From Ignavibacteriota bacterium (GTDB taxonomy: Bacteria; Bacteroidota; Ignavibacteria; Tepidaquicellales; OLB5): a stretch of 64,000 nt of DNA. The stretch lies in assembly GCA_003820375.1 (NCBI GenBank), contig RPQH01000011.1:4783-68782 (forward strand), given 5' to 3'. A program made the translations under genes and the position numbers. Below are positions 2,219 to 59,440 of this stretch, one piece after another; position 1 is the stretch's first letter; every line of letters begins with the position of its first letter. The notes under the pieces were generated by a model. That model saw only the letters and a program-made list of their open reading frames with translations. It was not told the DNA's origin and ran no database searches.

Positions 2219-2221
2219 ATT

Positions 2222-14250: not shown

Positions 14251-14302
14251 TTCAAGCCTCATTTTTTAAGTTAGGGGAAACAGCAATTTGAATATATTAT
14301 TA

Positions 14303-14330
14303 ATATTATATATTAAGCCTTTTAAGTCAA
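14303..14330 (-). promoter_or_regulatory. sigma70-type promoter for paralog 1
   Basis: The minus strand reads ATCATTGACTTAAA..TAATAT: TTGACT (14330-14325), a 16-bp spacer, then TAATAT (14308-14303). The same module recurs at 19992-20019. Confidence 0.6.
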
Positions 14331-14400
14331 TGATATTTCTTGTCTTTAACACGTTGTGATTTGTTTTCTCTCCTGTCTAACTTGTACTTGTGAAGGAAAG

Positions 14401-14464
14401 GCAATCTTTAATCTGCAATCTTTAATCTGCAATCTTTAATCTGCAATCTTTAATCTGCAATCTG
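14401..14464. repeat. 14-nt tandem array (GCAATCTTTAATCT, about 4.5 copies)
   Basis: Near-perfect direct repeats seen directly. They lie just downstream of the stop of paralog 2 in mRNA sense. The same vocabulary recurs at 59481-59555. Confidence 0.95.
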
Positions 14465-16267: not shown

Positions 16268-16297
16268 GACTTACCTAATATATTATTTTTAAAAAAT

Positions 16298-18079: not shown

Positions 18080-18113
18080 TTCTTACCTCATAGAAAAAAA
18101 ATTACTTAAAATT

Positions 18114-19940
18114 TTATTTTAATAACATAATTTTCTTTACATCGGTAAAACCATCACATTCTATTTTTAGAAAATATAACCCGCTCGCAAAATTCGTGCC
18201 ATCCCACTCCACATCGTAAGTGCCGGGTGTTTGCTTTTCATTTACAAGTGCGGCAACAACTTTTCCCAAAGCATCATAAATAACAAGCTTTACTTCACTG
18301 CTAACCGGCAATTGATAACTGATAATTGTTTTAGGATTGAATGGATTGGGATAATTTTGTGAAAGTGAAAATTCTTTTGGTATTTCATTTTGTGTCCCAT
18401 TCACTCCGACCATACATGGTGGATTAGGATTTAAATTTGTCGGGTAACCCTGGAAACATATATTTGGTAATGTAGCCTGAACAGTACCGGCTGTAATCAT
18501 AACACAACCATCTCCCGCAGAAATATCCTGGTGGTTGTGAAAAACTCTATTAGGATTTGATGTTGACGCTATTGTAGTACTTGATGTATAACTTGAATTG
18601 TTGAAGCAAATTTCAATTAAAAGATTGCAATTTGAATTATAATAAAACGGAGTTGATAAATATATCCATTGCAACCCGGTTGATGAAACAGAATAAGTTC
18701 CGCTATAAACTTCAGTCCACCCTGTTGAAACAAATCCGGTCAATGATGTCAAAGGTGTATTCTGCATTTTTATCTTAAAACCATTCATAACCTGTGGAGC
18801 TGCTGACAAAACTGTAAAGCCAATTTTAGTTATCACACTTAAATTAACTCCTATTTCACTTGCCAGGTAAAGAAAATCTGTTCTTGAATCCATATAAAAT
18901 GTATAAAAAGGATATTGAACTGCAATAGAACCTGTACCGTAACAAGGACTATAATAACCGGGAGGATATACATGCACAATTGTAGATACTGTATCATTAG
19001 CTCTGTATTCATCAGTTACCAATGCAGAAACAATTTTTAAAATAAAGTTTCCCGTATCTGCAGGCGTCCAGTTAAAAGCTACTGAATCTACTGCATTAGC
19101 ATTCAGGGATGTTATGATTAAGCTATTAACCTGAGTACCATTAACAAAGAATTTCATCGGGATATTTGATTCATTGGATGTACCGAGATTTTTTACTTTT
19201 GCTTTTATTACTTTCTGTACATTTACATTATACAATCCCGGTAAACTAAGGAACGGACCTGTTGCAATATTATGAGTATAAGTAACACCTGTACCATCAC
19301 ACCTTACACCGATAGCTTTATAGTTTGGGTAATATGTTTGAATACCTGCCCATGCACTTTGAATATATCCGTAGCCGGGTCTTAATATTGTTGTAGGGCT
19401 TTCATCAGCAGCAATATAATGAGATGGCATGGTTGCCGGGTCATAACTGATACCTACATAATAACTCTGCCCTGTTGTTAATGGAGGGACACCGGTTAAG
19501 CCGGTAAAATCAAACCATGTTACATTAGGCCATATCGGTACACCTGTTGCAGTCTGATTTGCAATAGTATGAACTAATGTTCCCGGACCGCCGCCTGTTC
19601 CGGTTGCATCATAAAATACAATATCAAAAGTAAAATTAGCTGAACCTGCGGCTACTCTCGTAAGAGCTAAGCAAACCTGATTGATTGTGAATGGGTAATC
19701 AGCCGGGGTCATTTTCATAGCCCATTTACCAATACCGTAACCGGCATTCCATCCATACCCGTTTTCCCATGTGTTGTCATCATAAACTAATCCGCCAACA
19801 CATTGAGCCCCGAGCATTCCTTCATTGCCTTTTATAAAAGGTGTATTATCATTTGCAAGCTGAGATGCAGGTTGAGAATATAAAGTATTTAAAGAAACTA
19901 TAGCTGAGAAGAGTAAAGACAGTAAAATGAGCTTTTTCAT
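18114..19940 (-). CDS. T9SS-sorted surface protein, tandem paralog 4 (first gene of the 3-gene operon)
   Basis: 608 aa paralog. GAGGTAAAAAATG ribosome-binding context. T9SS CTD ..GLYFLKIECDGFTDVKKIMLLK. Confidence 0.85.
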   Translation of the reverse strand: MKKLILLSLLFSAIVSLNTLYSQPASQLANDNTPFIKGNEGMLGAQCVGGLVYDDNTWENGYGWNAGYGIGKWAMKMTPADYPFTINQVCLALTRVAAGSANFTFDIVFYDATGTGGGPGTLVHTIANQTATGVPIWPNVTWFDFTGLTGVPPLTTGQSYYVGISYDPATMPSHYIAADESPTTILRPGYGYIQSAWAGIQTYYPNYKAIGVRCDGTGVTYTHNIATGPFLSLPGLYNVNVQKVIKAKVKNLGTSNESNIPMKFFVNGTQVNSLIITSLNANAVDSVAFNWTPADTGNFILKIVSALVTDEYRANDTVSTIVHVYPPGYYSPCYGTGSIAVQYPFYTFYMDSRTDFLYLASEIGVNLSVITKIGFTVLSAAPQVMNGFKIKMQNTPLTSLTGFVSTGWTEVYSGTYSVSSTGLQWIYLSTPFYYNSNCNLLIEICFNNSSYTSSTTIASTSNPNRVFHNHQDISAGDGCVMITAGTVQATLPNICFQGYPTNLNPNPPCMVGVNGTQNEIPKEFSLSQNYPNPFNPKTIISYQLPVSSEVKLVIYDALGKVVAALVNEKQTPGTYDVEWDGTNFASGLYFLKIECDGFTDVKKIMLLK

Positions 19941-20019: not shown

Positions 20020-20594
20020 TGATAAATCGTGTCTTAAAATACACATGCATTTGTTCTTAATTAAATTCATTTCCATTCTCATTGTTTTCCCTGCATTCCC
20101 ACCATATATCATTCCCCTGACTGATGCAGTCAGGGGAATGACATGTGTTAGGTAAGCGGGGAATGACACGGGGTGACATACAGTAAAAATCAGAGTTGGG
20201 TTCAAAACAGTGCGGAGATGGGTTCAAGTTGTGCCGGAGTTGGGGTCAAGTTAGTATCCAGTTGGGTTATCGTTTTTCAAAAACAGGGGTTAACTCATTG
20301 CAGTATAAGGAGATAACGCCGTCAGAGATGTGAGATTTTTGATTTAAAATTGGCGATTTCGAGCCGGAATCACCAATTTTTCATCATAATAAAACTTCAC
20401 TATATCATTAACCATTATCGTTATGGGAAAATTTTGGCAGCAAATTATTGTCGCTGATGTTGGAGAGTTAAAGTAATACTTTAAGGATTATCCGGCTCAT
20501 TTCAGGACACACCCCGTCTTATCAATTCCGTAGAACGGAATTGATAATCCACCCCTCTCGAGAGGGGAATCCTTTGATTTTTAAGCTCTAAATA

Positions 20595-20636
20595 CACCTC
20601 TCCTCCCAGGAGAGGGGAAAGGGGTGAGGTTTTTTC
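20595..20636 (+). terminator. GC-rich hairpin plus T6 inside the variable spacer of element copy A
   Basis: CCTCTCC (20597-20603) / GGAGAGG (20609-20615), then ..GGGGTGAGGTTTTTT. It is preceded by a perfect 13-bp hairpin (20519-20547) and the palindrome CCCCTCTCGAGAGGGG (20552-20567). Confidence 0.45.
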
Positions 20637-20645
20637 ACAAAAAAC

Positions 20646-20674
20646 TTGACAATTAGTAATTACTATATTAAATT
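20646..20674 (+). promoter_or_regulatory. conserved orphan promoter of element copy A
   Basis: TTGACA (20646-20651), a 17-bp spacer ending CTATAT, then TAAATT (20669-20674). The same arrangement occurs at 40874-40902 and 59130-59158. Confidence 0.7.
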
Positions 20675-20854
20675 ATATAGTGATGCTTATATATCAGTAT
20701 AAGCATAAATAATCGTTCTTTGACAAAATCGTAAATTAGAAAGTTATGTCGTTTGTTAATGTAAGGAATGGAGTCACGAAAATAGTTAGATTTTACACAG
20801 ATGAAAAAAATATGTATTGAAAAATGCACTAAAATAATTTTATCAGGAAATCAT

Positions 20855-28822: not shown

Positions 28823-28891
28823 ATAACGAAACTCCTTCATTATAAATTGTATTTAATATAATAAATCATCATTTTTGATTAGATGAATTAA

Positions 28892-28955
28892 TCAAATTTA
28901 TCAGATTCATCAGATTTATCAGATTCGCAATTGGCAATTCGCAATTCGAAATTGA
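28892..28955 (+). repeat. 9-nt (CAGATTYAT) then 7-nt (CAATTSG) tandem arrays upstream of the tRNA
   Basis: TCAAATTTATCAGATTCATCAGATTTATCAGATTCGCAATTGGCAATTCGCAATTCGAAATTG. Confidence 0.9.
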
Positions 28956-28959
28956 TTAT

Positions 28960-29031
28960 GCTCCCATGGTGTAATGGACAGCACGACAGGTTCCGGTCCT
29001 GTTGGTGAGGGTTCGAATCCTTCTGGGAGTA
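28960..29031 (+). tRNA. tRNA-Arg (anticodon CCG)
   Basis: Manual cloverleaf. Acceptor GCTCCCA/TGGGAGT (G1-U72 wobble). D-stem GTGT/GCAC with a GG loop. Anticodon stem ACAGG/CCTGT, loop TTCCGGT. T-arm GAGGG-TTCGAAT-CCTTC. Discriminator A. No encoded CCA. Confidence 0.8.
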
Positions 29032-29038
29032 CTAATAC

Positions 29039-29145
29039 AATTACGAATGACGAATGACGAGTTACGAATGAAGAATTACGAATTACGAATGACGAATTAC
29101 GAATGACGAATGACGAATTACGAATGACGAATTACGAATGACGAG
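29039..29145. repeat. heptamer array (ACGAATK)n, about 15 units
   Basis: TTACGAATGACGAATGACGAGTTACGAATGAAGAATTACGAATTACGAATG... It abuts the stop codon of the minus-strand gene 29146-29811. Its units are the reverse complement of the CAATTCG units left of the tRNA. Confidence 0.95.
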
Positions 29146-29811
29146 TTAACCTTTCAACCTGTAACCTGCAGCCACTCTGTGCCTGTCAACCCAATAAGCC
29201 CACAATACAAGCAGCCATTGTGTTAATCCAAGATAAGCAATAGATTTAACATCGGGCGGCGGCGGACCCATGATATTTCCAAAATAAATAATTACAAGAA
29301 AAACTATCAAAGCCCAAAAGGCATATGTGCCAATTTTATCTTTTGCAGATGTTGCAGAGATATAAAACCAAACTCCAAGGATGAAAATAACTGACTCAAG
29401 TATAATAGCAATAACCGGTGAATTCCACAATCCAAAGCCGACATTTGGTCCGGATGTAAGAAGAGGCAGGTCAGGGCGGTGTACAAACAGGTCAAGCACC
29501 CAGTGGCTTAATACCAATAAACCTACAATCAATGAATTCTTTACATTTCTTTTAATAAAGAAATAAATACCTCCAATAATAATACTCCATGCGAGTACAA
29601 AAATTAAGCTGTGGCTGTAGGGATAATCCGAAAAATTTAATGGTGTCATTATAGTATCACCCGGATTTATGACAACATGTTCAATTCCGAATAAGAGCAG
29701 CAATGGCCAAAGCAAATCAAGCCATTGAGAAGCAAGGAACAATGTTCCTAACGAAACCTGCGGAGCCGGTTTTTTGCCGGCTAATCCTGCACCAAAATGA
29801 CCTATAAACAT
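29146..29811 (-). CDS. multi-pass membrane protein, unknown function
   Basis: 221 aa and hydrophobic, with N-terminus MFIGHFGAGLAGKK. The ORFs that overlap it are short. Confidence 0.65.
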   Translation of the reverse strand: MFIGHFGAGLAGKKPAPQVSLGTLFLASQWLDLLWPLLLLFGIEHVVINPGDTIMTPLNFSDYPYSHSLIFVLAWSIIIGGIYFFIKRNVKNSLIVGLLVLSHWVLDLFVHRPDLPLLTSGPNVGFGLWNSPVIAIILESVIFILGVWFYISATSAKDKIGTYAFWALIVFLVIIYFGNIMGPPPPDVKSIAYLGLTQWLLVLWAYWVDRHRVAAGYRLKG

Positions 29812-34866: not shown

Positions 34867-36654
34867 ATGAAATTAATACAATCGTGTATAACTCTTCTTG
34901 TAATTCTTGCTGCCGGAAGCCCTGTTTTATCACAAAGAACTATTGATGATATAACGACAGTTGCTGAGTTTAAACAGTATGCCCGTTTAATGGCACCAAA
35001 TGAAAATGCTTTTGTGGCAGTGCAAAGGATTGCAAAAGAATATCTGGACAGTAAAGACTGGCAGGGTGCTGCACAGGTATTTGCCGCGTACAGCAAGCTA
35101 TTTCCTAATATGAATGAGCGTTTTGCAAAGATAGATTCGCTTTTGAAAGCATCTCCGCAAAATTTAATACTTACTAATCTAAGGGTAATAAATTCAAGTG
35201 ATGATGAATATTTTCCTGTAATTACAATAGATGAGAACCGTATATATTTTACCGGAAGCAGCAGAAAAGATAATATCGGCGGCGAAGATATCTTTTACTC
35301 CGACAGGATAAACGAGAAATGGACTAAGGCAAAGTTATTACCGGCCCCCTTCAGCACATATGAAAATGATGCTGTTAACAGTGTATCTGCAGACGGGATT
35401 ATTCTCGTTGTCTTTGGTACGTATAAAGGTGCAATCGGCGAAGGGGATAACTTTTATTCCGAAAGAACCGCTTCGGGATGGTCTGCAATAAAACCGTTTC
35501 AAGTTCCGGTTAATTCCAAGTACTGGGATTGTGACGGGTTTCTTTCTGCCGATGGCAAAGCATTCTTTTTTGTAAGTGACAGACCCGGGGGAACCGGTGA
35601 GTTCAACAGGAGCGGTTATCCTTTCCATGGTGATATACAAGGTAACACTGATATTTATGTTTGCGTCAAAAATGATTCAGGCTGGTCTGCTCCAATCAAT
35701 CTTGGCACTTATGTTAACACGCCTTATTCAGAACGCTCGCCTTTCCTGCATCCAGATGGAAGGACATTGTATTTTTCATCTGACGGCTTTTACGGACTTG
35801 GTGAGCTTGATGTATTTAAGACTGTCAGGTTAAATGATACCTCATGGACAGAATGGGGTAAACCGGTAAATCTCGGTAAAGATATTAATACAAGCGGAAC
35901 GGATATTGCATATAAGATTTCAACAAAAGGTGAACTCGCTTATTTTTCAACAAATTATTCCGGCGGTGAAGGCGGGTATGACATTTATTCGATAACACTT
36001 CCGCCTGAAGCAAGACCGCAAAGAAATGTGGTTGCCGTTAAAGGAAAAGTAACCGATGAAAATGATAATCCGCTTGATGCAAATATCAATTGGGCGGATA
36101 TTTCTTCTAACACAAATGTCGGAGCTTTAAAATCGGACCCTGTAACCGGCGATTATATCATCGTACTTCCTGTAGGGAAAGTTTACAGCTATTTTGCAGA
36201 TAAGCAGGGTTATTACTCGGTTTCAAATGAAGTGAATCTTTCGGATAAAACCGAATACTCGGAAATGAATGTTGATATAAAAATGATTGCTGTTAAATCA
36301 CTTGAGGAAACAGCAATAAAGCTAAATAATATTTATTTTGATTTTGATAAATATGACCTGAAGCCTGAATCATTCAGTGAACTGGAGAGAGTGTATAAAT
36401 TTCTCACAGATAATCCTGAAATTAAAGTAGAGATATCTGCACATACAGATGCAATAGGCAGCGAAGAATATAATATGGGACTTTCACAAAAGCGTGCACA
36501 AAGTGTTGTTGATTATCTTATCAGCATTGGTATCAATCAGGACAGGTTGATTGCAAAAGGTTACGGTAAAAGCCAGCCTGTAGCAGATAATGGTACCGAA
36601 GAAGGCAGAGCATTAAACAGAAGAGTGGAAATGAAAATAGTTAAGAGTCTATAG
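34867..36654 (+). CDS. OmpA-family protein with TolB-like repeats (paralog of the preceding gene)
   Basis: 595 aa, collinear with 32982-34793. Signal peptide. ..SAHTDAIGSEEYN..NRRVEMKI. Confidence 0.85.
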   Translation: MKLIQSCITLLVILAAGSPVLSQRTIDDITTVAEFKQYARLMAPNENAFVAVQRIAKEYLDSKDWQGAAQVFAAYSKLFPNMNERFAKIDSLLKASPQNLILTNLRVINSSDDEYFPVITIDENRIYFTGSSRKDNIGGEDIFYSDRINEKWTKAKLLPAPFSTYENDAVNSVSADGIILVVFGTYKGAIGEGDNFYSERTASGWSAIKPFQVPVNSKYWDCDGFLSADGKAFFFVSDRPGGTGEFNRSGYPFHGDIQGNTDIYVCVKNDSGWSAPINLGTYVNTPYSERSPFLHPDGRTLYFSSDGFYGLGELDVFKTVRLNDTSWTEWGKPVNLGKDINTSGTDIAYKISTKGELAYFSTNYSGGEGGYDIYSITLPPEARPQRNVVAVKGKVTDENDNPLDANINWADISSNTNVGALKSDPVTGDYIIVLPVGKVYSYFADKQGYYSVSNEVNLSDKTEYSEMNVDIKMIAVKSLEETAIKLNNIYFDFDKYDLKPESFSELERVYKFLTDNPEIKVEISAHTDAIGSEEYNMGLSQKRAQSVVDYLISIGINQDRLIAKGYGKSQPVADNGTEEGRALNRRVEMKIVKSL

Positions 36655-36786
36655 AGTTCAGAGAGTTTAGAGAGTATAGAGAGTTCAGAGAGTTTGGAGA
36701 GTTCGGAGAGTTCGGAGGGTTCAGAGAGTTCAGAGAGTTCAGAGAGTTCAGAGGGTTCAGAGAGTTCGGAGAGTTCGGAGAGTTTA
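36653..36786 (+). repeat. 9-nt tandem array (GAGAGTTYR), about 15 units, starting in the stop codon
   Basis: TAGAGTTCAGAGAGTTTAGAGAGTATAGAGAGTTCAGAGAGTTTGGAGAGTTCGGAGAGTTCGG... Confidence 0.95.
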
Positions 36787-36882
36787 TGGGATGGAATAAT
36801 TGAGAGCTCAAACATTATAGGTAAACTGTGATACAGAATTCTATAATGTATTGTATATTGATACTACATATAGTATCTTTAA

Positions 36883-39201: not shown

Positions 39202-39402
39202 GGTTACACTAATTTACAAAATCTATAAAACATTTAAAATTCAATTCTTTATATATATAACCTTTTAATTATTCTATACATTCAAATGAAGATAAGGAAC
39301 TAATCTTTTGAAAAACCACGTTTTAATTTATAATTGTATATGGCGACATATTTAGTTCTTATAAATTATATAAATACAAATAAAATTAAAGATACTTACG
39401 GA

Positions 39403-40074
39403 ATGCAAATGAAAAGAATATACATTGTACTGATAACCACGATAATTTTAACGCCATCCGGTATTTATTCGCAGGCATACGCAACATTTGATACTGCAAT
39501 GTTTACAGCTTACGGCATTTACCATGCAATGGAGCTTAACAACAGCACGGTGCGTGAAAAAGCATATGCTCTTTCTGCCAGCAATACAAATGACTATACC
39601 GGCCAGGTATGTACTATATTTGATTATATGTATTATAACTGGAATTATGTAAACGATCCGGGCGGCATGGAATATTTTGCAGATGCAACCGAAACGCTGG
39701 AAACTATGACAGGGGATTGTGATGATTATGCTATTGCTATGGTATCTATGCTTTCAAACCTAGGAGGGGATGGGCGTGTAATCTGTGTTTCAGGGCATGC
39801 TTATCCCGAAATGTATCTTGGGAAAGATCTCGATGAAAGTACATTAATTGATTTAAAACAACAGATAAACAGCCATTATGAAAAGCTTTACGGCAGGAAA
39901 AACAAAGTAAGAAATATGCATTACCGCCGTGATTATGACGGTACTTACTGGCTTAATCTCGATTGGCAGTCTGATCATCCCGGAGGAAGATGGGTGGATG
40001 ATTCAAGCGATGCGCAATTTCTTGTAATTTATACAAATGGAACTTGGAGACAGGGTTATCTAAATAATGAATAA
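39403..40074 (+). CDS. secreted transglutaminase-like (papain-fold) protein
   Basis: Cys motif TGDCDDYA and downstream SGHAYPE. Signal peptide MKRIYIVLITTIIL. I prefer the ATG at 39403/39409 over the track TTG at 39334. Confidence 0.6.
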   Translation: MQMKRIYIVLITTIILTPSGIYSQAYATFDTAMFTAYGIYHAMELNNSTVREKAYALSASNTNDYTGQVCTIFDYMYYNWNYVNDPGGMEYFADATETLETMTGDCDDYAIAMVSMLSNLGGDGRVICVSGHAYPEMYLGKDLDESTLIDLKQQINSHYEKLYGRKNKVRNMHYRRDYDGTYWLNLDWQSDHPGGRWVDDSSDAQFLVIYTNGTWRQGYLNNE

Positions 40075-40107
40075 TTAAAGATTTTTTCAAACCTCCTTCT
40101 TTAGACT

Positions 40108-40151
40108 GACATCAATGTCATATTGCTGTATGATGTTGATGTCTTTTTTTA
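40108..40151 (+). terminator. intrinsic terminator
   Basis: GACATCAA (40108-40115) / TTGATGTC (40136-40143) followed by T7. Confidence 0.65.
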
Positions 40152-40161
40152 TTTCTTTCCC

Positions 40162-40292
40162 CTCCTTCCCAAGTTGTACTTGGGAAGGAAATTGAGTTTG
40201 AAATTGTATTTCAATCTTTGATCTCCAATGCTGCTGATGTGTAAGTTCAACTTACAGTACATTTTACTTCCCAAGTACAACTTGGGAAGGAG
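40162..40292. repeat. MITE-like unit bounded by a 26-bp inverted repeat
   Basis: CTCCTTCCCAAGTTGTACTTGGGAAG (40162-40187) and its reverse complement at 40267-40292. Each arm is itself a hairpin. A related word, AACTTGTACTTGTGAAGG, occurs near 14375. Confidence 0.75.
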
Positions 40293-40411
40293 GAAAAGCA
40301 ACTGCCAAAGGCAGTCAAGCCAACAACGGGTAACTAATCAAACCCGTCACTGTCTCAAAAATGCCGCCCGCCTGTACGGGCAGACATGTGGATTTTCTCC
40401 ACAAAAAACCG

Positions 40412-41047
40412 GAGTTGGGTTCAAAACAGTGCTAAGTTAGGTTCAAGTTGTGTCGGAGTTGGGTTCAAGTTGGCATCAAGTTGGGTCATCGTTTTTGGAA
40501 AACAGGGGTTAACTCATTGCAGTATAAGGAGATAACGCCATCAAAAATATGAGATTTTCGATTAAAGATTTGCGATTTTGAGCCGGAAACGGCATTTTTC
40601 TAGCAAAATAAAACTTCACTATATCATTAACCATTATCGCTATGGGAAAAATTTGGTAGCAGATAATTGTCGCTGATGTTGGAGGAGTTAAAGTATTACT
40701 TGAAGGTATTTCCGGTTTATTTTATTCACATCCCGGTCTAATCGCATATTGATTCTTCTTACTTCTAACCTCTGATATATAACTTCTTATAATTGTAAAT
40801 CCTGCTAAAATTGATGGGATTGCCACGCTTTGCTCGCAATTGTGCTTAACATCCAACTATTTTCACCAAAAACTTGACAATAAGCAATTACTATATTAAT
40901 TTAATGTAGTAGTGATTATCATCACTCAGTAACGTTCTTTGATAAAATAGAGATGAATTTATACATGTCGTAATATTGTATGAAAATACTGCTCACTAAT
41001 TTGGTTAGATTTTGGAAGTTTGAAAAAAATATGTACTGAAAAATACC
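40412..41047 (+). repeat. ORF-free modular element, copy B
   Basis: Same order of modules as copy A. Islands identical to A include GGGGTTAACTCATTGCAGTATAAGGAGATAACGCC (40505-40539) and AAAACTTCACTATATCATTAACCATTATCG. Confidence 0.85.
40874..40902 (+). promoter_or_regulatory. conserved orphan promoter of element copy B
   Basis: TTGACA (40874-40879), 17 bp ending CTATAT, TAATTT (40897-40902). Confidence 0.7.
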
Positions 41048-41050
41048 TAA

Positions 41051-41172
41051 AGAGTCAGGAGTTCAAGAGTCTGGAGTCGGGAGTCTGAGAGTTGAGAATC
41101 TAAGAGTTTGAAAGTCAGAGTTATAAGTTCGGGAGTTGAGAGCTATAAGTTTTAAAGTTGCGGGTTATGAGC
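41051..41172 (+). repeat. degenerate 7-9-nt array (GAGTYNR words)
   Basis: GAGTCAGGAGTTCAAGAGTCTGGAGTCGGGAGTCTGAGAGTTGAGAATCTAAGAGTTTGAAAGTCAGAG... Confidence 0.8.
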
Positions 41173-41251
41173 CGGGTGGTGAATACTGTTTTTGTTTTCT
41201 GGATACTCATTTTCCCGAATATATTTGGCAATAAGATTCTATGTTCAGTAT

Positions 41252-42982
41252 TTATTTTGTGTCGCGAAGACAGGAGAAGATAAAATCATTAATATCTTTT
41301 ACAGTAACATTTGGAGTGATTTTCATGAAAGTGGAAGGAGAGTTGTTCTGGTATATCCAGTTGGAAATTAATTTCATACTATCCAGCTCTTCTTTATTAT
41401 ATTTACCGTAATTGTTATATAATACAGAGCCAAAAAGGTTTCCTCTGAAATATATATTCTTAATCAATTCATTCAAAATCTCCTTGCCCTGTGTTGAATC
41501 CTGCAGGGCAGGGGAGACATAAAACGTCTTTACCAGCTTACCACCCGAAATAAAAAACAACTCACCGGAATTTTCCTCCCCGGTTTCCGGGCATTTTACA
41601 ATGTAGTTTTTCAGATTAATCTCTGCAGAGGTTAAAATCATGTTAGCCATTACTTTTTTCAGGTCTTCAATCCTGTCACGTAAAATCGATGCCTCTTCAA
41701 ATTGCAGTTGTTCTGAATATTCAAACATCTTTTTCTCGAGCATCTGAAGTGCTCCCGGGCTTGCTTCCGATTCGAGGAATGTTATAACACGGTTCACCTC
41801 TGCCCTGTAAGCAGGGTGCGGCTCCGAGAAATTGCACGGTGCATTGCATTGCTTAAATTCATGATACATGCAGGTTGAGTGTTTAACCGAAGGTGTTAAT
41901 TTTTTATCATCACATTTACGGAGGAAAAATCCCTTGTAAATCCTGTCAAGCAATGAATTAACCGTATACGAACTGCGGAATGGTCCGTAATATCTTCCGC
42001 CGTCCAGCTTCACCTCAAATGTTTTTTCTGCTTTGGGATACTCGTTCTGCACATCAATTTTGATAAATGGGAAATTGCTGTATCTCTTTGTTGCTGAATT
42101 ATACGGCGGCTTTAATGATTTTATCAGCCTGCTCTCAAGTATTAATGCAGAAAGCTCAGAGCCGGTAATTTCATAATTAACTTTTTGTACTTCACGCAGC
42201 ATTTTTTTTATCTTTGGTGTGTGCGATACATTATGATAGAAATAAGAACGTACCCTGCTGTTGAGATTCTTTGCCTTGCCGACATAAATTATCTTATCAT
42301 GTCTATCTTTCATAAAATATACACCGGAATTAAACGGGATATCCTTCAGCTGCTGCTTGATGCGTTTTATATTGGGTGGTATCTTTTCTGCTTCAAATAT
42401 TTTTTTATACTGGAATGAAAGTATTTCATCAATAGATTCGTATTCATATTCATTCAGCAGTGTATCAATAAACCTGAGGAGTATTTTTGCAGTTGCAGTA
42501 GCATCATCAAGTGCACGGTGTCTTCTTTCAACTTTTATCTGGTAATGTTGTGAAAGTGAATAAAGCGATTTTGACCTGAGATTCTTGTTTAGCCTTCTGG
42601 CAAGCCGTCCTGTACAAATGGTGGGTGTATCAACAGGCATCTCACCGCATCTTTGTAATGAGTTATTCAAAAACTTGTAATCGAACGATACATTATGCCC
42701 TCCCAGAACAACATTATCCGAACCGAAGGCAAAATCCTTTAGAATCGGCACAACTTTATCGAATGTTGGCTTATCGTACACCATTTCATTTGTAATTCCT
42801 GTAAGAGATGTAATATATGATGATATATACATCTGTGGATTTACAAGTGTTGAGAATTCTGAAATAATCTTTCCCTTCTGGATTTTAACCATTCCAATTT
42901 CCGTAATACGGTCATGGACGGCACTTAAACCGGTTGTTTCAACGTCTAATACTATGAATGTTGTATCTGAAATTGAGTTCAA
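41252..42982 (-). CDS. DnaQ-like 3'-5' exonuclease fused to a GIY-YIG (UvrC/Cho N-terminal-like) nuclease
   Basis: Exo motifs FIVLDVETTGL, GHNVSFDYKFL and HRALDDA. Then GVYFMKDRHDKIIYVGKAKNLNSRVRSYF and ELSALILESRLIKSLKPPYN. Confidence 0.85.
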   Translation of the reverse strand: MNSISDTTFIVLDVETTGLSAVHDRITEIGMVKIQKGKIISEFSTLVNPQMYISSYITSLTGITNEMVYDKPTFDKVVPILKDFAFGSDNVVLGGHNVSFDYKFLNNSLQRCGEMPVDTPTICTGRLARRLNKNLRSKSLYSLSQHYQIKVERRHRALDDATATAKILLRFIDTLLNEYEYESIDEILSFQYKKIFEAEKIPPNIKRIKQQLKDIPFNSGVYFMKDRHDKIIYVGKAKNLNSRVRSYFYHNVSHTPKIKKMLREVQKVNYEITGSELSALILESRLIKSLKPPYNSATKRYSNFPFIKIDVQNEYPKAEKTFEVKLDGGRYYGPFRSSYTVNSLLDRIYKGFFLRKCDDKKLTPSVKHSTCMYHEFKQCNAPCNFSEPHPAYRAEVNRVITFLESEASPGALQMLEKKMFEYSEQLQFEEASILRDRIEDLKKVMANMILTSAEINLKNYIVKCPETGEENSGELFFISGGKLVKTFYVSPALQDSTQGKEILNELIKNIYFRGNLFGSVLYNNYGKYNKEELDSMKLISNWIYQNNSPSTFMKITPNVTVKDINDFIFSCLRDTK

Positions 42983-50862: not shown

Positions 50863-52233
50863 ATGAAAAAAATATTAGTTCTTTTACTGTTTATTTTATT
50901 TTCTCCTGAATTATTTTCTCAATACGTTGTTGAACCTACTGTAACGGGATTGAACAGTCCTGTAGCATTTGCTTTTTTACCTAACGGCAATGTAATAATG
51001 ACACATAAAGCAGGTCCTGTGCGGATATATAATCTTAATAACACAATTGTGTCAACATTCTGGAATTTTACCGATTCATGCCAGAGCGGCTTTGAAAGAG
51101 GAACTCTCGGAATCTGTCTTGACCCGAACTTTTCAACAAATCATTACGTATATGTTTATTATGTTCACCTCAACCCGCAGAGCTTAAGAGTAGTAAGATT
51201 TACTGAAAATAACAATCTCGGAACAAACCCGTTAATAATTTTCGATTATCCTGTTGGAACAATAGCGGGAAATCACGTGGGTGGAAATATACATTTTGGT
51301 CCGCAGGGAAAATTATACATCACAATTGGAGAGACTGCCGTATCCTCAAATTCACAATTACTTACAAATCCGAAAGGGAAAATAATAAGAATTAATTCCA
51401 ATGGTACTATACCAACCGATAATCCATATTATGATGACGGTAATCCATCATCAAATAATGATGACAGGATATGGTGTTATGGATTAAGAAACAGCTTTGA
51501 TTTCTGTTTTAGCCCAATAAATGATTCTCTTTATGCTACTGAAAACGGAGCTAACACTTACGATGAAGTAAACTTTATCCGCAAAGGCAAAAACTACGGC
51601 TGGCCAAATTGCGAAGGATATTGCAATCCTTACAATCCTGCATTCAAACAACCGATGCATGTTTGGGGCTCTCCTCTTCCTGCAGTAACAGGTATAATGG
51701 TCTATAATAGTACAGTCATGCCTGAGTTTAATGGAAAGCTTCTGGTTGCTGATAATGATAACGGAATGATATATAAGCTTGAACTCGGAAATGCCCCGTT
51801 TTATGATACCGTTACAACACGTACACAGGCATTTGATCTGGATGGTTTAACAGCATTAATGCAGGGTCCCGATAATTATATTTATGCATTAAACGGAGGA
51901 TACACAACAACGGGAAAGCTGTACCGTATCAAACCCTCTACATCCGGAACAGGTAACCAGAATACTCCTGAGGGATATGAATTAAAGCAAAATTATCCGA
52001 ACCCGTTTAATCCCAACACAACCATCTCATATTCAATAGGGAATGCAGCAATTGTTAATTTGAAAATCTATAATGCTATGGGACAGGAGGTTGGCTTTAT
52101 AGTTAATGAATATAAATATGCCGGCACTTACAATATAGAATGGAATGCCGTCAATCACCCAAGCGGGATTTACTTATACAAGCTAACTGCAGGTGATTTC
52201 GTCGCCGAAAGAAAAATGGTCTTAATCAAATAA
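50863..52233 (+). CDS. PQQ-dependent sugar (glucose/sorbosone) dehydrogenase-like beta-propeller with T9SS CTD, paralog 1
   Basis: PVAFAFLPNGNVIMTHKAGPVRIY, ERGTLGICLDPNF, NHVGGNIHFGPQGKLYITIGE, GKIIRINSNGTIPTDNPY, GLRNSFDF and GKNYGWP. CTD LKQNYPNPFNP..GIYLYKL..RKMVLIK. Confidence 0.85.
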   Translation: MKKILVLLLFILFSPELFSQYVVEPTVTGLNSPVAFAFLPNGNVIMTHKAGPVRIYNLNNTIVSTFWNFTDSCQSGFERGTLGICLDPNFSTNHYVYVYYVHLNPQSLRVVRFTENNNLGTNPLIIFDYPVGTIAGNHVGGNIHFGPQGKLYITIGETAVSSNSQLLTNPKGKIIRINSNGTIPTDNPYYDDGNPSSNNDDRIWCYGLRNSFDFCFSPINDSLYATENGANTYDEVNFIRKGKNYGWPNCEGYCNPYNPAFKQPMHVWGSPLPAVTGIMVYNSTVMPEFNGKLLVADNDNGMIYKLELGNAPFYDTVTTRTQAFDLDGLTALMQGPDNYIYALNGGYTTTGKLYRIKPSTSGTGNQNTPEGYELKQNYPNPFNPNTTISYSIGNAAIVNLKIYNAMGQEVGFIVNEYKYAGTYNIEWNAVNHPSGIYLYKLTAGDFVAERKMVLIK

Positions 52234-52269
52234 TTAAGAAATAAAACGTAACTTATAAGAATTTTATTA

Positions 52270-52321
52270 ACCCTTCGAATGTTTTTCTAAAAGTTTGGAG
52301 AAACAGAGAAGGGGTTTTTTT
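52270..52321 (+). terminator. large-loop hairpin plus T7
   Basis: CCCTTC (52271-52276) / GAAGGG (52308-52313) followed by GTTTTTTT. Confidence 0.5.
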
Positions 52322-52372
52322 ATCCCCTGATATGCTAAATGTAAGTTTTTAAAAACTTTTATTTGTAATCTT

Positions 52373-53749
52373 ATGAGAAAATTCTTATTTGTACTGATGT
52401 TTACAATTTTTACGCCCTTTCTTTTTTCCCAATATACAATTGAAACTCCAATAACAGGTTTGGTACGCCCGGTAGCATTTAGCTTTTTGCCGAATGGTAA
52501 CGTGATTATGACACATAAAGCCGGACCTGTAAGAATATACACTTTAGGCGGTGCTGTTGTATCTACTTTCTGGAATTTTACCGATTCCTGCAACAGTGTT
52601 GATGAAAGGGGAACACTGGGTATCTGTATTGATCCGAATTATGCTGTAAACCATTATGTTTATGTATTTTACATTCATCTCAATCCGCAAGGTATCAGGG
52701 TGGTGCGGTTTACCGAAAATAACAATCTTGGGACCAATCCCTTAATAGTGTTTAATTACCCGACCGGAACACTTAATGGAAATCATGTCGGCGGAAATAT
52801 CAGGTTCGGTCCTGATGACAAGCTTTATATTACAATCGGTGAAACAGGCATTTCATCCAATGCCCAGTTACTGACTAATCCGCGGGGTAAAATTTTACGC
52901 ATTAATTCTAACGGTACTATACCAACCGATAATCCATATTATGACGACGGGAATCCTTCAACGAACAATGATGACAGGATATGGGCTTACGGATTAAGGA
53001 ACAGCTTTGATTTCTGTTTCAGCCCGGTAAATGACTCGCTTTATGCATCTGAGAATGGTTCAACAATCTGGGATGAGATTAATTTTATCCGCAAAGGTAA
53101 AAATTACGGCTGGCCGGTTTGCGAAGGATATTGCAATCCTTACAATCCTGCATACAGGCAGCCAATGCACGTAATTGGCGGTTCACCACTGCCCGGTGTA
53201 ACGGGTATTATGATATACAGCAGTACCGTAATGCCCGACTTCAATGGAAAGCTCCTTTTTGGCGATAATAATTATGGGAGATTGTTCAGTTGTACGCTGG
53301 GAAATGCTCCTTTCTACGATACCATAACTGCCCGGACACAGGTTTTCGACCTTGATGGATTAACAACATTAATGCAGGGTCCCGATAATTATATTTATGC
53401 ATTAAACGGCGGTTATACTACGACAGGGAAATTATACCGTATCCGGCCTTCCATAACAGGTATTGGCAATAATCATTCTATTCCCGATGGGTTTGAATTG
53501 AGACAAAATTTTCCAAATCCTTTTAATCCTAAAACAATTATCAATTATCAATTGGCAATGAGCAAAGACGTTAAGCTTGTTGTATATGATGTAATGGGAA
53601 AGGAAATTGCTGTACTTGTAAATCAAAAGCAAAATGCAGGCACACACGAAGTAGAATGGAATGCATCAAATTATCCAAGCGGAGTTTATTTTTACAGTTT
53701 AACCGCTGGCGATTTTACTGCTGAGAAAAAAATGGTACTGCTCAAATAA
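52373..53749 (+). CDS. PQQ-dependent sugar dehydrogenase-like T9SS cargo, paralog 2
   Basis: 458 aa, collinear with paralog 1. CTD LRQNFPNPFNP..GVYFYSL..KKMVLLK. Confidence 0.85.
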   Translation: MRKFLFVLMFTIFTPFLFSQYTIETPITGLVRPVAFSFLPNGNVIMTHKAGPVRIYTLGGAVVSTFWNFTDSCNSVDERGTLGICIDPNYAVNHYVYVFYIHLNPQGIRVVRFTENNNLGTNPLIVFNYPTGTLNGNHVGGNIRFGPDDKLYITIGETGISSNAQLLTNPRGKILRINSNGTIPTDNPYYDDGNPSTNNDDRIWAYGLRNSFDFCFSPVNDSLYASENGSTIWDEINFIRKGKNYGWPVCEGYCNPYNPAYRQPMHVIGGSPLPGVTGIMIYSSTVMPDFNGKLLFGDNNYGRLFSCTLGNAPFYDTITARTQVFDLDGLTTLMQGPDNYIYALNGGYTTTGKLYRIRPSITGIGNNHSIPDGFELRQNFPNPFNPKTIINYQLAMSKDVKLVVYDVMGKEIAVLVNQKQNAGTHEVEWNASNYPSGVYFYSLTAGDFTAEKKMVLLK

Positions 53750-53940
53750 AAAGCAGTAAAAGCAGGTAAAAAGCTTTTTAAAAAGTGAAGTTTTGTATTG
53801 CTCTTATCTTAATATATAAGTGATATAAACGCGTAAGAATTATTTAGATCCTTTAAATGTATCTTAATCAGTGAAACGAGGAGAAGGGTTTGAGTTTTTT
53901 TATTTAATGATAATATTTTTAAAATTTACGATAAATTAAT

Positions 53941-55335
53941 ATGAAAATAGCTTTGTTTTTGTTACTGATTTCTGCTTGTTCTTTCCAGGTATTTCCGCAA
54001 TACACAATTGAAGTACCAATATCGAATTTAGTTCAGCCGGTAGCATTTTCATTTTTACCTAACAACAATGTAATAATCACACATAAACCGGGGCTTGTCA
54101 GAATTTACTCTATGGATGGCAGTATTGTCTCGGATTTCTGGAATTTTACAGATTCATGCAGTAGTGCCGGTGAACATGGAGCACTCGGCATTTGCCTTGA
54201 CCCGAATTATGCTACAAACCATTATATATATATCTACTATATTCACAGTAATCCGATGGGAATTAGAATAGTCAGACTTACTGAGAATAATAATGTTGGT
54301 ACAAACCCTTTCATCATATATAATTATTTACCTGCTCCGCTAACAGGATTTCATGTTGGAGGTAACGTAAAATTCGGTGCCGATGGAAAGCTCTATTTTT
54401 CCACCGGTGAAACAGCAGTATCTCCTAATGCACAATTGCTGACTAATCCGCTTGGAAAAATTTTACGTATTAATTCCAATGGGACGATTCCAACTGATAA
54501 TCCATTCTATGATGATGGTAATCCATCAACAGGTAATGATGACAGGATTTGGGCTTATGGATTAAGAAACAGCTTTGATTTCTGCTTTAGTCCTGTAAAT
54601 GATTCTCTTTATGCAACCGAGAATGGTGCCGCTCTTTATGATGAAGTAAATTTCATACGAAAAGGGAAGAATTACGGATGGCCGGTATGCCAGGGATATT
54701 GCAACCCATATAATCCTTTATATCAGCAGCCGATGCACGTTTGGGGTGTCCCTATACCTGCTTTGACCGGTATTATGGTTTATAGCGGCTCTGTCATGCC
54801 TGAGTTTAACGGTAAGCTTCTTGTTGCAGATAATAATTTCGGAAAAATATATAAATGTGATTTGGGTGATGCTCCAAATTATGATACTATTACCGGGGTC
54901 ACACAGGTTTTCGATCTTGATGGTTTTACTACATTGCTGCAGGGACCGGATGGGTTTATCTACGGACTGAGCGGCGGTTATATCACTGCCGGAGGATTAT
55001 ACAGAATCAAGCCGCAGGCTTTTGGAATTAAAAATAATAAGAATGTTGCTGATGTATTTGAGCTAAAACAAAATTTCCCGAATCCGTTTAATCCGAATAC
55101 TAAAATTAATTATGAATTAAAGGCGGCAAGTGATGTCCGCTTATCCGTATTTGATGTTACTGGGAAAGAGATAGCTGTTCTTATTAATAAAAAACAAAAC
55201 CCCGGCCCGTATGAAGTAATCTGGAATGCGGAAGGATTTTCAAGCGGTGTGTATTTTTACCGTATATCAGCCCGCAGGGACGGTTCTTCGACAGAAGAAT
55301 TTACTGATGAGAAAAAAATGATCTTAATTAAATGA
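53941..55335 (+). CDS. PQQ-dependent sugar dehydrogenase-like T9SS cargo, paralog 3
   Basis: 464 aa, collinear. The CTD has an extra RRDGSSTEE segment before the final strand. Confidence 0.85.
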   Translation: MKIALFLLLISACSFQVFPQYTIEVPISNLVQPVAFSFLPNNNVIITHKPGLVRIYSMDGSIVSDFWNFTDSCSSAGEHGALGICLDPNYATNHYIYIYYIHSNPMGIRIVRLTENNNVGTNPFIIYNYLPAPLTGFHVGGNVKFGADGKLYFSTGETAVSPNAQLLTNPLGKILRINSNGTIPTDNPFYDDGNPSTGNDDRIWAYGLRNSFDFCFSPVNDSLYATENGAALYDEVNFIRKGKNYGWPVCQGYCNPYNPLYQQPMHVWGVPIPALTGIMVYSGSVMPEFNGKLLVADNNFGKIYKCDLGDAPNYDTITGVTQVFDLDGFTTLLQGPDGFIYGLSGGYITAGGLYRIKPQAFGIKNNKNVADVFELKQNFPNPFNPNTKINYELKAASDVRLSVFDVTGKEIAVLINKKQNPGPYEVIWNAEGFSSGVYFYRISARRDGSSTEEFTDEKKMILIK

Positions 55336-55400
55336 GTGTATAAAATATATGGAGTGTCCGGCTATTGCCGGATAACTGCAGCGGGTTAAAGCAATTAAAC

Positions 55401-55435
55401 AAAAAGCGTTCTTCAATAGAACGCTTTTTCGTTTT
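55401..55435 (+). terminator. intrinsic terminator
   Basis: AGCGTTCT (55405-55412) / AGAACGCT (55418-55425) followed by TTTTTCGTTTT. Confidence 0.8.
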
Positions 55436-55454
55436 ATTTGTTATAGTATTTAAG

Positions 55455-56873
55455 ATGAAAACAAATAAAATAATATTTCTGCTTTTGTTTATTCCCGTTA
55501 CGTTTTTTTCCCAGTTTTACACAGCAGATACACTCATTACCAATCTCAGCTATCCGGTTGCTTTTGCATTTCTGCCTGACGGGAATGTAATGATTACACT
55601 AAAAGAAGGACCGGTGAAAATATATACTCTGAATAACACAATTGTTTCGCAGGTCTGGAATTTTACGGATTCATGTGTCTCTGACGGCGAAAGGGGTGTG
55701 CTTGGTATTTGCGCAGACCCGCAATTTACGGTTAACAGGTATATCTATATTTATTATGTTCATGCTATACCGCCTTTACCAACAGAACCGCAATGGCTTA
55801 GAGTTGTCAGGTTAACATTGAATGCTAATAATACAGGAGGAAATCCTTTTATTGTTTTTAATCACCCGGTAGAAGTTATTGGATGCTGTCATGTTGGGGG
55901 TAATGTCCATTTTGGACATGACGGGAAACTGTATCTTACACTTGGTGAAACAAATAACCAGCCCGCAGCACAATCAAAAGTTACACCGCTTGGAAAAATA
56001 TTGAGAATGAATTCGAACGGTACGGCACCAACAGATAATCCTTTCTATGATGACGGCAATCCGAATTCGGGAAATGATGACAGGATTTGGTGCATGGGAT
56101 TAAGAAACAGCTTTGATTTTTGCTTCAGTCCCATTAATGATTCACTGTATGCAACTGAAAATGGATTAATTACTGCTGATGAAGTTAACTATATACGTAA
56201 AGGTAAAAACTACGGCTGGCCAATTTGCGAAGGTTACTGCAATCCTCCTGTAGATTCATTTACTCAGCCAATGCACACCTGGTCACCGACTATTGCTGTT
56301 ACGGGAATAATGGTCTACCAGGGAACGCAGTATCCTGAATTGAACGGGAGATTGTTAGTTGCAGATAATAAAAACGGAAGAATATATAAATGTGAGTTGG
56401 GCAGGGCACCTGCTTATGATACTATAATTTCACGTACACAAATAATTGAGCTGGGACCGCTGACATCTTTAATGCAGGGTACTGATGGATTCATTTATGT
56501 TTTAAACGGCGGTTATGAGCCAAGTGGAAAATTACACAGAATAAGACCATCAAGCATTGGAGTAAACAATAATCAACAAGAGGTACCCGGTGGATTTGTT
56601 CTTTATCAGAATTATCCGAATCCGTTCAATCCAAAAACTATTATCAATTACCAATTGACAATGAGCAATTATGTGATGTTAACAATCTATGATTTAATAG
56701 GAAGAGAAGTTGCTGTGCTCGTTAGCCAAAAACAAAATGAAGGCAATTATAAAGTTGAATGGGATGCATCAAATTATCCAAGCGGAGTTTATTTCTATAA
56801 GCTAACTGTCCGGCAAGCCGGATCTTCGACAGGAAATTTCTCTGCGGAAAAAAAGATGGTCCTGTTGAAATGA
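55455..56873 (+). CDS. PQQ-dependent sugar dehydrogenase-like T9SS cargo, paralog 4
   Basis: I prefer the ATG at 55455 (MKTNKIIFLLLFIPVTFFSQ signal peptide), because the track start at 55365 runs through the terminator. The CTD has an RQAGSSTGN insertion. Confidence 0.85.
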   Translation: MKTNKIIFLLLFIPVTFFSQFYTADTLITNLSYPVAFAFLPDGNVMITLKEGPVKIYTLNNTIVSQVWNFTDSCVSDGERGVLGICADPQFTVNRYIYIYYVHAIPPLPTEPQWLRVVRLTLNANNTGGNPFIVFNHPVEVIGCCHVGGNVHFGHDGKLYLTLGETNNQPAAQSKVTPLGKILRMNSNGTAPTDNPFYDDGNPNSGNDDRIWCMGLRNSFDFCFSPINDSLYATENGLITADEVNYIRKGKNYGWPICEGYCNPPVDSFTQPMHTWSPTIAVTGIMVYQGTQYPELNGRLLVADNKNGRIYKCELGRAPAYDTIISRTQIIELGPLTSLMQGTDGFIYVLNGGYEPSGKLHRIRPSSIGVNNNQQEVPGGFVLYQNYPNPFNPKTIINYQLTMSNYVMLTIYDLIGREVAVLVSQKQNEGNYKVEWDASNYPSGVYFYKLTVRQAGSSTGNFSAEKKMVLLK

Positions 56874-58514: not shown

Positions 58515-58517
58515 ATT

Positions 58518-58686
58518 GAGTGTGTAGAGTGTGTGGAGTGAGTGGAGTGTGTAGAGTGTGTAGAGTGTGTGGAGTGTGTGGAGTGTGTGGAGTGTGTGGA
58601 GTGTGTGTAGTGTGTAGAATGTGTAGAGTGTGTAGAATGTGTAGAGTGCATTGAGTGTGTAGGTACGTTGAGTGTGTGGAGTTTGT
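58518..58686 (+). repeat. 9-nt tandem array (GAGTGTGTR), about 18 units
   Basis: TAAATTGAGTGTGTAGAGTGTGTGGAGTGAGTGGAGTGTGTAGAGTGTGTAGAGTGTGTGGAGTGTGTGG... Confidence 0.95.
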
Positions 58687-58693
58687 AGTCAGC

Positions 58694-59310
58694 GGTCACT
58701 CAGTGGTCACTCAGCGGGCAGTTTATGGGCACTCAGTGGGCACTTTACGGGCACTTTATGGGCAGGTTTTGGGCAGGAGTTTTTAAAAAATGACTGTAAC
58801 TTATTGCAGTATAAAGAGATAACTCCTGCCCAAAGTGCTAAAAATGGCTCGAAATTTGGCGATTATAAGCAGGAAATGAGGTTTTTGAAAAACCGCTCCT
58901 GCCCACTGATTTTCGGGAAAAAATAAACAAAATAACCGAATCATCGTCGCTATAATTTAAGAGTTAAAGTAATACTTCAAGGGTTTCCCGGCTCGTTTAA
59001 ACTCACGCCCCCTTAATCACTTCGAAGAGGGAACTGCTTACTATATTAATCCTCTAATCTGATAAATTTGATAAATCTGATGAATTTGATAAATTATTCT
59101 ATACATTCGAAACTATTTTTTGCTAAAACTTGACAAGAGGCAATCTCTATATTAATTTTATATAGTAGTGAATGCTGATGCAATTTATTATCCGTTGTCG
59201 TACTTTGCTAATATCGAAATCATGATTATCAGGTCGTAAATTTAATTTATCGGGAGCTTAGCTACAGGGCCGGATATGGGAATAAAAAAGTATTAAAAAT
59301 GAAAATTTTT
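58694..59310 (+). repeat. ORF-free modular element, copy C (diverged)
   Basis: Eight GGKCAS words at exact 11-bp steps (58694 to 58771). Then CTGTAACTTATTGCAGTATAAAGAGATAAC, GAGTTAAAGTAATACTTCAAGG..CCGGCTC, a spacer containing 9-mers, and the promoter module. Confidence 0.8.
59130..59158 (+). promoter_or_regulatory. conserved orphan promoter of element copy C
   Basis: TTGACA (59130-59135), 17 bp ending CTATAT, TAATTT (59153-59158). Confidence 0.7.
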
Positions 59311-59336: not shown

Positions 59337-59440
59337 CAATTAGCAATTTGCAATGAGCAATGGAGAGTTCAGAGAGTTTGGAGAGTTCAGAGAGTTTGGA
59401 GAGTTCAGAGAGTTAAGAGAGTTTAGAGTGTTTGGAGAGT
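59337..59440 (+). repeat. heptamer (CAATNNG) then 9-nt (GAGAGTTYR) tandem arrays
   Basis: CAATTAGCAATTTGCAATGAGCAATGGAGAGTTCAGAGAGTTTGGAGAGTTCAGAGAGTTTGG... Confidence 0.95.

Follow-up and report, generated by a model that had tools for sequence, protein, structure and literature searches.

The window, by which we mean the whole 64,000-nucleotide stretch of DNA that was analysed, contains a gene-free gap of 1177 bp (40075 to 41251) that is bounded by the stop codons of two convergent genes. Copy B of a repeated element lies in this gap (Table 1) and, being placed between two 3' ends, cannot be a 5' leader of either neighbour; the initial annotation was right on both points. It had also described an inverted repeat to the left of the copy, which we find to have 76-nt arms (40136-40318), and an array to its right, which has 7-8/22-bp periods (41066-41160). 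The coordinates given for words inside the element were all correct, but the start at 40412 was not: the unit has its edges at ~40403 and ~41052. Homology reaches further left, to ~40285, in copy B and three other copies.

The GGG words of copy B are present at 40417, 40439 (as AGG), 40461, 40483 and 40505 with a spacing of exactly 22 bp, and the half-step word GGCATCAAG is found at 40472. The 22-bp phasing of the GGG words results from the alternation of two 11-bp units, AAGTTGGGTTC and AAGTTGTGTCG. Tandem Repeats Finder (TRF) reports a period of 11 with 4.8 copies (40434-40486) and a repeat search gives the 22/11-bp spacing. Over the left 335 bp, copies A and B have 84.5% identity. Perfect matches of 21, 41, 28 and 17 nt are separated by substitution-rich stretches and three indel columns, which is the pattern of islands and indels that had been reported.

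Table 1. Coordinates of copy B with its parts and surroundings, and of copies A and C
Feature	Position	Strand	Remarks
Transglutaminase-like gene	39334-40074	+	left neighbour of copy B
REP-like hairpin doublet, inverted (REPIN-like)	40136-40318		CTTCCCAAGT-TGT-ACTTGGGAAG; outside the unit
Optional left extension, class 1	40285-40402	+	four small hairpins in a run; common to L018, L019 and L020 only; blastn of L020
Copy B, whole unit	40403-41052	+	nhmmer with family profile 40404-41047, E 1e-187; edges from 19-copy alignment
Phased direct-repeat array	40403-40510	+	11-bp unit AAGTTGGGTTC, 22-bp super-period; present in 19/19 copies
Near-invariant core GGGGTTAACTCATTGCAGTATAAGGAGATAACGCC	40505-40543	+	41-nt identical A/B run; almost every column fixed in 19 copies
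Module 3	40544-40612	+	exchangeable, two versions; GATTT heptads, local hairpin around GAGCCGGAA, T-run
Module 4, conserved block	40613-40735	+	palindrome GAGTTAAAGT-ATT-ACTTGAAGG 40686-40706; TTTCCGGTTT 40709-40718
Hypervariable spacer, allele type beta	40736-40856	+	shared with L005, L013, L020
Promoter (predicted)	40857-40902	+	UP-like A/T-rich AACTATTTTCACCAAAAAC; -35 TTGACA 40874-40879; 17-nt spacer; -10 TAATTT 40897-40902
Hairpin AGTGAT-TATC-ATCACT	40911-40926	+	just after predicted transcription start
Conserved A/U-rich tail	40927-41052	+	~130 nt to right edge; ...GGTTAGATTTTGGAAG..TGAAAAAAATATGTAYTGAAAAATRCMCT
G/A/T-rich 7-8-bp array	41066-41160	+	right of B edge, in sense with element promoter
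DEDD-exonuclease/GIY-YIG gene	41252-42982	-	right neighbour of copy B
Copy A	20184-20835	+	nhmmer E 7e-173
Copy C, divergent member	58690-59310	+	nhmmer E 5e-43; 11-bp array GGGCACTTTAT x8; core, palindrome, promoter, tail kept

Further copies were sought with a 21-mer taken from the longest A/B island. Two JGI assemblies of one sample contained 21 loci with the exact 21-mer, and removal of duplicates and one chance match left 17 further distinct copies, among them one (L004b) that does not have the exact 21-mer. The family therefore counts at least 19 distinct aligned copies plus the divergent copy C, all from one Ignavibacteria population genome; the proteins flanking the metagenome copies are those of Ignavibacteria, and the samples that yielded these copies are also the origin of the contig of the window. 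The suggestion that the sequence is a discrete repeated element was borne out, as the 19 copies have common edges and a median pairwise identity of 86% in the left unit. Copies are ~620-710 bp long. Their right edge is sharp and ends in ...GAAAAATRCMCT; the left edge is common as well but is blurred by alternative extension modules. The copies differ by ~14%, which gives no sign of recent movement. The density is ~1 copy per 30-50 kb, estimated from contigs that were selected for holding a copy, and in a single lineage of Ignavibacteria the family appears to reach tens of copies in each genome.

The 21-mer has no match in 185,579 GTDB species genomes, and no true match to the family was obtained in GTDB genomes, phage collections, plasmid collections or Rfam. 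The core, array and promoter patterns have no true match in IMG/VR. A GTDB hit to a looser two-block pattern (L022) and viral matches to the array pattern (L027-L032), as well as L049, are chance matches in which the other parts of the element are absent. The literature, searched by keyword and by sequence string, gave nothing relevant to the element. No described family fits, and this roughly 650-bp non-coding repeat family thus seems to be previously undescribed.

A protein-coding gene or pseudogene can be ruled out. Once the further copies are aligned, no ORF that has a start codon is conserved among them, and the variable columns are spread evenly over the three phases (57/52/50, p = 0.78), so both the non-coding nature of the element and the expected lack of 3-nt periodicity were confirmed. 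The array contains no stop triplets, hence the open frames in all three phases that run over it.

The copies are insertions. At a relative locus (L025; exonuclease ortholog 81% identical at the amino acid level) the same two convergent genes are 21 bp apart, compared with 1177 bp in the window. The insertion of copy C is upstream of metG. The window has 1095 bp there, copy C included; relatives with 87% and 79% amino acid identity have 198 bp and 108 bp respectively, and an 85% relative has no copy in the 726 bp upstream of the gene that were compared. No family member is present at any of the relative loci examined. The B and C sites thus measure 21-198 bp in relatives with 79-87% protein identity, and we conclude that the insertions are specific to this lineage. 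Between the 87% relative and the window, similarity upstream of metG is limited to the final 88 bp, which excludes copy C as the ancestral metG promoter.

Each copy has different, unrelated neighbours, all of them ordinary chromosomal genes. Among 15 copies, seven have convergent genes on either side; at the right edge, 11 of the 15 face the 3' end of a gene and the other four a gene start. This genomic context is typical of tolerated insertions. The ends of the element show no inverted match and hence no terminal inverted repeats (TIRs), and its terminal ~40 nt hold no hairpins. Target-site duplications (TSDs) are also absent: the longest words shared by the two flanks are 3-9 nt, differ for each copy and are mostly A-runs. 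The bases at the left junction vary (CAC, GGC, TCG, CGT, ATG). Insertion into a repeated target was rejected because the right-end words AAAAATGCACT/AAAAATACCCT are found only within copies. No autonomous partner or longer coding copy was seen in 222 kb of sampled contigs.

The order of the parts in the unit, with a G-rich array, a hairpin with T-run, a spacer, a promoter and a leader, mimics a co-directional intergenic region. The unit might accordingly be read as a non-mobile 'terminator plus promoter' cassette, formed from the 3' region of one gene and the promoter, leader and first codons of the next, that spread by segmental duplication and gene conversion and is tolerated at gene ends. 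The sequence GGAAGGATGAAAAAA at the right edge could provide a ribosome site and ATG, and the left neighbour is on the + strand in 10 of 15 copies. We regard this origin as very unlikely. A source locus in which a real gene follows the unit was not found, and the frame that starts at the right-edge ATG is short and different in every copy. The unrelated flanking genes leave no visible segmental duplication, the edges are identical in all copies, unlike those expected from duplication, and the unit is wholly absent from relatives.

The optional left extension exists in at least three classes. The extension motif GGCATGTGGATTTTCTCCAC is found solely adjoining copies, and in copy B the extension contains two terminator-like hairpins on the minus strand. 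Copy C carries its different 11-bp unit at the same position as the array of the other copies. Next come a T5/A5 mini-hairpin and the almost invariant core sequence TAACTYATTGCAGTATAARGAGATAAC. Copy C retains this core and has the arms of a perfect 14-bp inverted repeat on either side of it (58768-58781 / 58821-58834). Module 3 exists in two versions that are unrelated to each other; the rarer one occurs in L009, L010 and L020 and resembles that of copy C, and module 3 of copy A received a terminator-like call. In module 4 the arms of the palindrome TTAAAGT-N3-ACTTKAA are invariant in 19 copies (the sites in copies A and C are 20465-20485 and 58961-58981) and are followed by TTCCGGYTC.

The spacer is 120-200 bp long and comes in four unrelated versions, none of which occurs outside copies. 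The hairpins of region 5 are likewise confined to the inside of copies, which rules them out as independent REP insertions. Module 3 has two versions, the spacer four, the promoter-proximal hairpin about four and the left extension three or more, and the unit is thus a mosaic; its polarity is fixed. The versions occur in shuffled combinations, so the copies recombine, and gene conversion instead of selection could account for part of the block conservation. Two copies carry an additional tiny palindrome, TCCGCCTAGGCGGA between modules 3 and 4 of L006 (also present outside a copy, L001 12325) and CCCAGAGGGATCCCTGTGGG between the -10 and the hairpin of L005. These look like very small hairpin insertions.

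The initial annotation had noticed neither copy C nor the promoter, which is the most constrained feature of the element. TTGACA is exact, the spacer is 17 nt and TAnnTT is present in 18 of 18 copies, copy C included, against a median identity of only 74% for the right unit. A promoter scan also calls a promoter in copy A. A hairpin follows the predicted start in nearly all copies with about four unrelated stem sequences (mean z -1.8), and no terminator-like site is found from the promoter to the right edge. Similar G-rich arrays to the one to the right of copy B follow the right edges of L006, L007, L019 and copy C. They are of the type that starts at, or a few bases from, stop codons elsewhere in the window, and their presence in sense after five right edges fits rightward transcription. 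Arrays of this type have 7-9-bp units (GAGTGTRTA, GAGAGTTYR, GAGTCWG) with the G-rich, C-poor strand in sense. They were seen at 12130-12217, 36613-36810, 58515-58688, 59363-59440, 2218-2279 (reverse) and 41066-41160, and a relative (L051, ~560-620) has similar arrays.

The long-range pair noted initially is present in copy B, where GAGCCGGAAA (40580-40589) is complementary to TTTCCGGTTT (40709-40718) with two G-T pairs; copy A has GAGCCGGA/TCCGGCTC instead. That the pair would be kept in other copies proved only partly true: all eight pairs form in 11 of 19 copies and seven in three, but six form in one copy and four or fewer in another four. The 3' arm TTCCGGYTC is kept in L010, L020 and copy C despite replacement of the 5' arm by another module, and long-range pairing therefore does not explain its conservation. 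All tolerated changes in the pair replace G-C by G-U on the + strand and hint, weakly at best, at pairing of this strand. When six helices picked by hand in the left unit are taken together, 88% of cells pair across 19 copies, and covariation measures are no higher than in column shuffles, of which 119-364 out of 500 equal or exceed the real alignment. Mean folding z-scores of the left unit are -1.4 (+ strand) and -0.7 (- strand); that of copy B alone gives -85 (+) compared with -55 (-) kcal/mol (z -3.4 and -1.1). RNAalifold returned no consensus structure, and no pairs, in the right unit. The structured-RNA reading implied by the long-range pair found no support, and a large structured RNA is unsupported by z-scores this weak, by covariation at shuffle level and by a right unit with no consensus. 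No Rfam covariance model reached its gathering score in the window, which excludes a known RNA family. At E ≤ 10 the region 40412-41047 gave one chance snoRNA match (sn2903, E 0.25), and matches to microRNA precursors, far below gathering scores, fall on the inverted repeat to the left of copy B.

These data bear on the possibility that we are dealing with a family of regulatory RNA genes, in which the left and/or right unit would be a base-pairing sRNA, a protein sponge or a cis-antisense RNA and the host would keep the copies for that reason. A promoter conserved without exception, a 5' hairpin whose structure but not sequence is maintained, a conserved tail and G-rich stop-codon-type arrays in sense are features that such genes might have; the better folding of the + strand of the left unit and the G-U changes of the long-range helix point the same way. 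Nevertheless, we consider RNA genes unlikely. Beyond the lack of an Rfam match, of a consensus structure and of covariation above shuffles, mean z-scores are only -1.4 to -0.2, and the modules, including one arm of the long-range helix, are freely swapped. Compared with a stand-alone sRNA gene, the right unit has its own predicted promoter (18/18) and lacks an intrinsic terminator before the right edge. Tens of copies with random neighbours are unlike known sRNA gene families, and a riboswitch or leader is at odds with a right edge that faces a gene start in so few copies (4/15).

The module 4 palindrome is shared with phages. In the form GAGTTAAAGT-RWT-ACTTNAAG, which includes its flanks and can also be written with the ending ACTTTAAG, it occurs exactly in 16 IMG/VR contigs (L033-L048), several of which have two or three related copies each. 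The free position completes the palindrome in 15 of the 16 viral contigs; the element copies have T (9/19) or G (10/19) there, and the perfect palindrome is not conserved. In eight of the 16 viral contigs an ORF lies within ~25 nt, with the GAG side upstream and the start codon 3-25 nt away. One palindrome precedes a 78-aa protein of LexA_DNA_bind type (wHTH) and a large terminase, and in rodent-gut Microviridae (L053 2162-2198) the palindrome is duplicated in a 30-bp gap before an ORF. In 222 kb of Ignavibacteria DNA the perfect palindrome is restricted to element copies, and looser versions add a few sites that are apparently within genes. Two LexA-like SOS-box motifs of Bacteroidetes have been described (PMC8565304); the palindrome resembles neither and is not upstream of genes in the sample, and we rejected an SOS box. 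The palindrome sequence was not found in the literature searched. Its distribution points to a protein-recognized or otherwise directional signal that would be shared with phages.

Iteron-type replication origins, such as those of pPS10, R6K and P1, also have contiguous 22-bp direct repeats in helical phase, with A/T-rich DNA, palindromes and a promoter nearby. At least three direct repeats of 17-22 bp in helical phase characterize these origins, and the element has five GGG words and a TRF period of 11. By analogy, the unit may be a relic or decoy of a phage or plasmid replication-control region, in which the array would represent iterons, the palindromes operators and the promoter a control promoter. 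Its copies would then have been dispersed as a satellite, or would serve to titrate an initiator or repressor that enters the cell. Four to five 22-bp repeats in helical phase would suit this origin, as would a palindrome that overlaps the -10 region in all copies, a second palindrome that is a motif beside viral genes and once precedes a wHTH gene, and an array whose sequence varies between subfamilies at a constant position. We find it improbable nonetheless. No initiator (rep), repressor or other gene is linked to any copy, and the array, core and promoter are absent from IMG/VR, phage and plasmid collections. The shared palindrome spans only 21 nt, and the element does not conserve it in perfect form. 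The unit is present in tens of copies per chromosome, where dozens of functional origins would be harmful.

A related idea is that the element is a gene-less phage parasite or sensor whose array and phage-type palindrome would be bound by a phage initiator, small terminase or repressor. This is a long shot in our judgement. Were it true, infection would be the only time at which copies are replicated, mobilized or activated, or else the copies would titrate phage proteins as chromosomal decoys. The family would then represent a so far undescribed type of non-coding phage satellite or decoy.

Several classes of mobile or repeated DNA resemble the element in part. MITEs are likewise short, gene-free, multicopy, intergenic and lineage-specific and presumably moved by a factor encoded elsewhere, and at ~620-710 bp, with at least 19 copies and no conserved ORF, the family is short, non-coding and multicopy in the same sense. 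In contrast to MITEs it has no TIRs or TSDs, which excludes a DDE-type MITE, and its ~650 bp (larger than most), strong polarity and internal promoter also set it apart. Mosaic intergenic repeats are known as BIME/REP in enterobacteria, BOX in pneumococci and NIME/Correia in Neisseria, and consist of units that are 20-150 bp palindromes or short boxes. They share with our family the shuffling of alternative modules, a location at gene ends and, in some cases, promoters or protein-binding sites. The element differs from them by its fixed 650-bp order, non-palindromic blocks and phased array and has no sequence similarity to them. Unlike REP, BIME or REPIN sequences, the 650-bp unit is not palindromic, while the neighbouring doublet at 40136-40318 does fit that description.

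As in REP systems, this genome contains REP-like hairpins and a Y1 (RAYT/IS200-like) gene. The hairpin was found seven times in the sample, always outside copies and mostly within a few hundred bp to their left (L003 2728, L013 12779/12880, L016 10272, L006 3189, L020 ~6484, L024 377); a 75%-identity relative without the element has the hairpin too. An AAGT-N3-ACTT core is common to this hairpin and the element palindrome. The Y1 gene, of IS200-like or RAYT type (L004 ~700-1600, minus strand; Pfam Y1_Tnp E 1e-6), is the only transposase seen in the sampled loci. It lies 350 bp from an element copy but, in contrast to a RAYT-REP pair, has inverted repeats of its own (~120 bp) on both sides and no similarity to the element.

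Insertion sequences without TIRs and TSDs are known from the IS110/IS1111, IS200/IS605 and IS91 families. These, and insertion sequences with outward promoters, share with the element the outward promoter near one end and the absence of TIR and TSD, and the preference for sites adjoining REP-like hairpins recurs in it. An IS200/IS605-derived element should have subterminal hairpins at both ends and a fixed target of 4-5 nt at the left junction, and neither is present here. Compared with IS110, in which the DEDD recombinase gene lies downstream of a structured bridge RNA of ~180 nt, the element lacks a recombinase ORF and a supported RNA structure; no structure resembling a bridge RNA or an omega RNA was detected in it. 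A CRISPR array or leader and type III antitoxin repeats were dismissed, the 11/22-bp period being too short and no cas or toxin gene being nearby. We assign the family to the bacterial non-coding interspersed mosaic repeats, among which its size, fixed polarity, phased array and conserved promoter are novel.

That copies A, B and C belong to a real, inserted, non-coding repeat family is our main conclusion, and we put its probability at about 90%. For the fuller mechanism, in which the family is a non-autonomous dispersed element that carries sites for proteins to bind and a promoter directed outwards, we would give roughly even odds on the sequence evidence. Two kinds of sequence remain constant as the rest drifts, from which we infer that both are under selection. 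The helix-phased array (11/22 bp), the core and the palindrome are putative protein-binding sites and would be the handles for a factor encoded elsewhere. Candidates for this factor are a recombinase or transposase that leaves no inverted repeats or duplications, or a DNA-binding protein of a phage or of the host. The predicted strong promoter (UP-like, TTGACA, 17 nt, TAnnTT) would fire towards the right edge and yield a poorly structured RNA of ~140 nt or more, headed by a protective 5' hairpin. Transcription would leave the element and in most cases enter a convergent gene from its 3' end. The RNA may serve the spread of the element or a host function.

Bacterial genomes are usually thought to be poor in large non-coding repeats. 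This family fills perhaps 1% of the genome of an uncultured organism, with no copy in which promoter or phased array is disrupted. An active promoter would mean that RNA is sent from dozens of sites into neighbouring gene ends, a genome-wide layer of antisense or read-out transcription from one family. If a mobile-element or phage protein binds array and palindrome, it would provide a handle on a mechanism of insertion that creates neither inverted repeats nor duplications, and would point to an unstudied host-phage interaction in Ignavibacteria, for which we know of no genetic system. The family is also a clean marker for strain typing in metagenomes.

The window contains further repeats and genes that deserve mention. 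Two runs of four tandem paralogous genes are located at 12460-19940 and 50863-56873; the one member that was scanned, at 18114-19940 in the first run, codes for a secreted protein that combines CARDB and T9SS sorting domains. Copy A is found at the end of the first run, and the copy in L005 lies between two paralogs of the same family. An association with T9SS cargo genes was rejected, as these make up 10 of ~36 immediate neighbours, which we estimate to be roughly the genome background. A tRNA gene (28960-29031) is situated between 7-bp tandem arrays (28870-29160), with ATCAGATT... and CGCAATT... upstream and AATTACGAATGACG... downstream. Heptads of the same kind (CGAAATT/CGCAATT) form the end of the element's class-3 left extension. 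Finally, a DUF805b RNA motif (Rfam RF02914, 41 bits) is present at positions 5-39 of the window, upstream of the first ORF.
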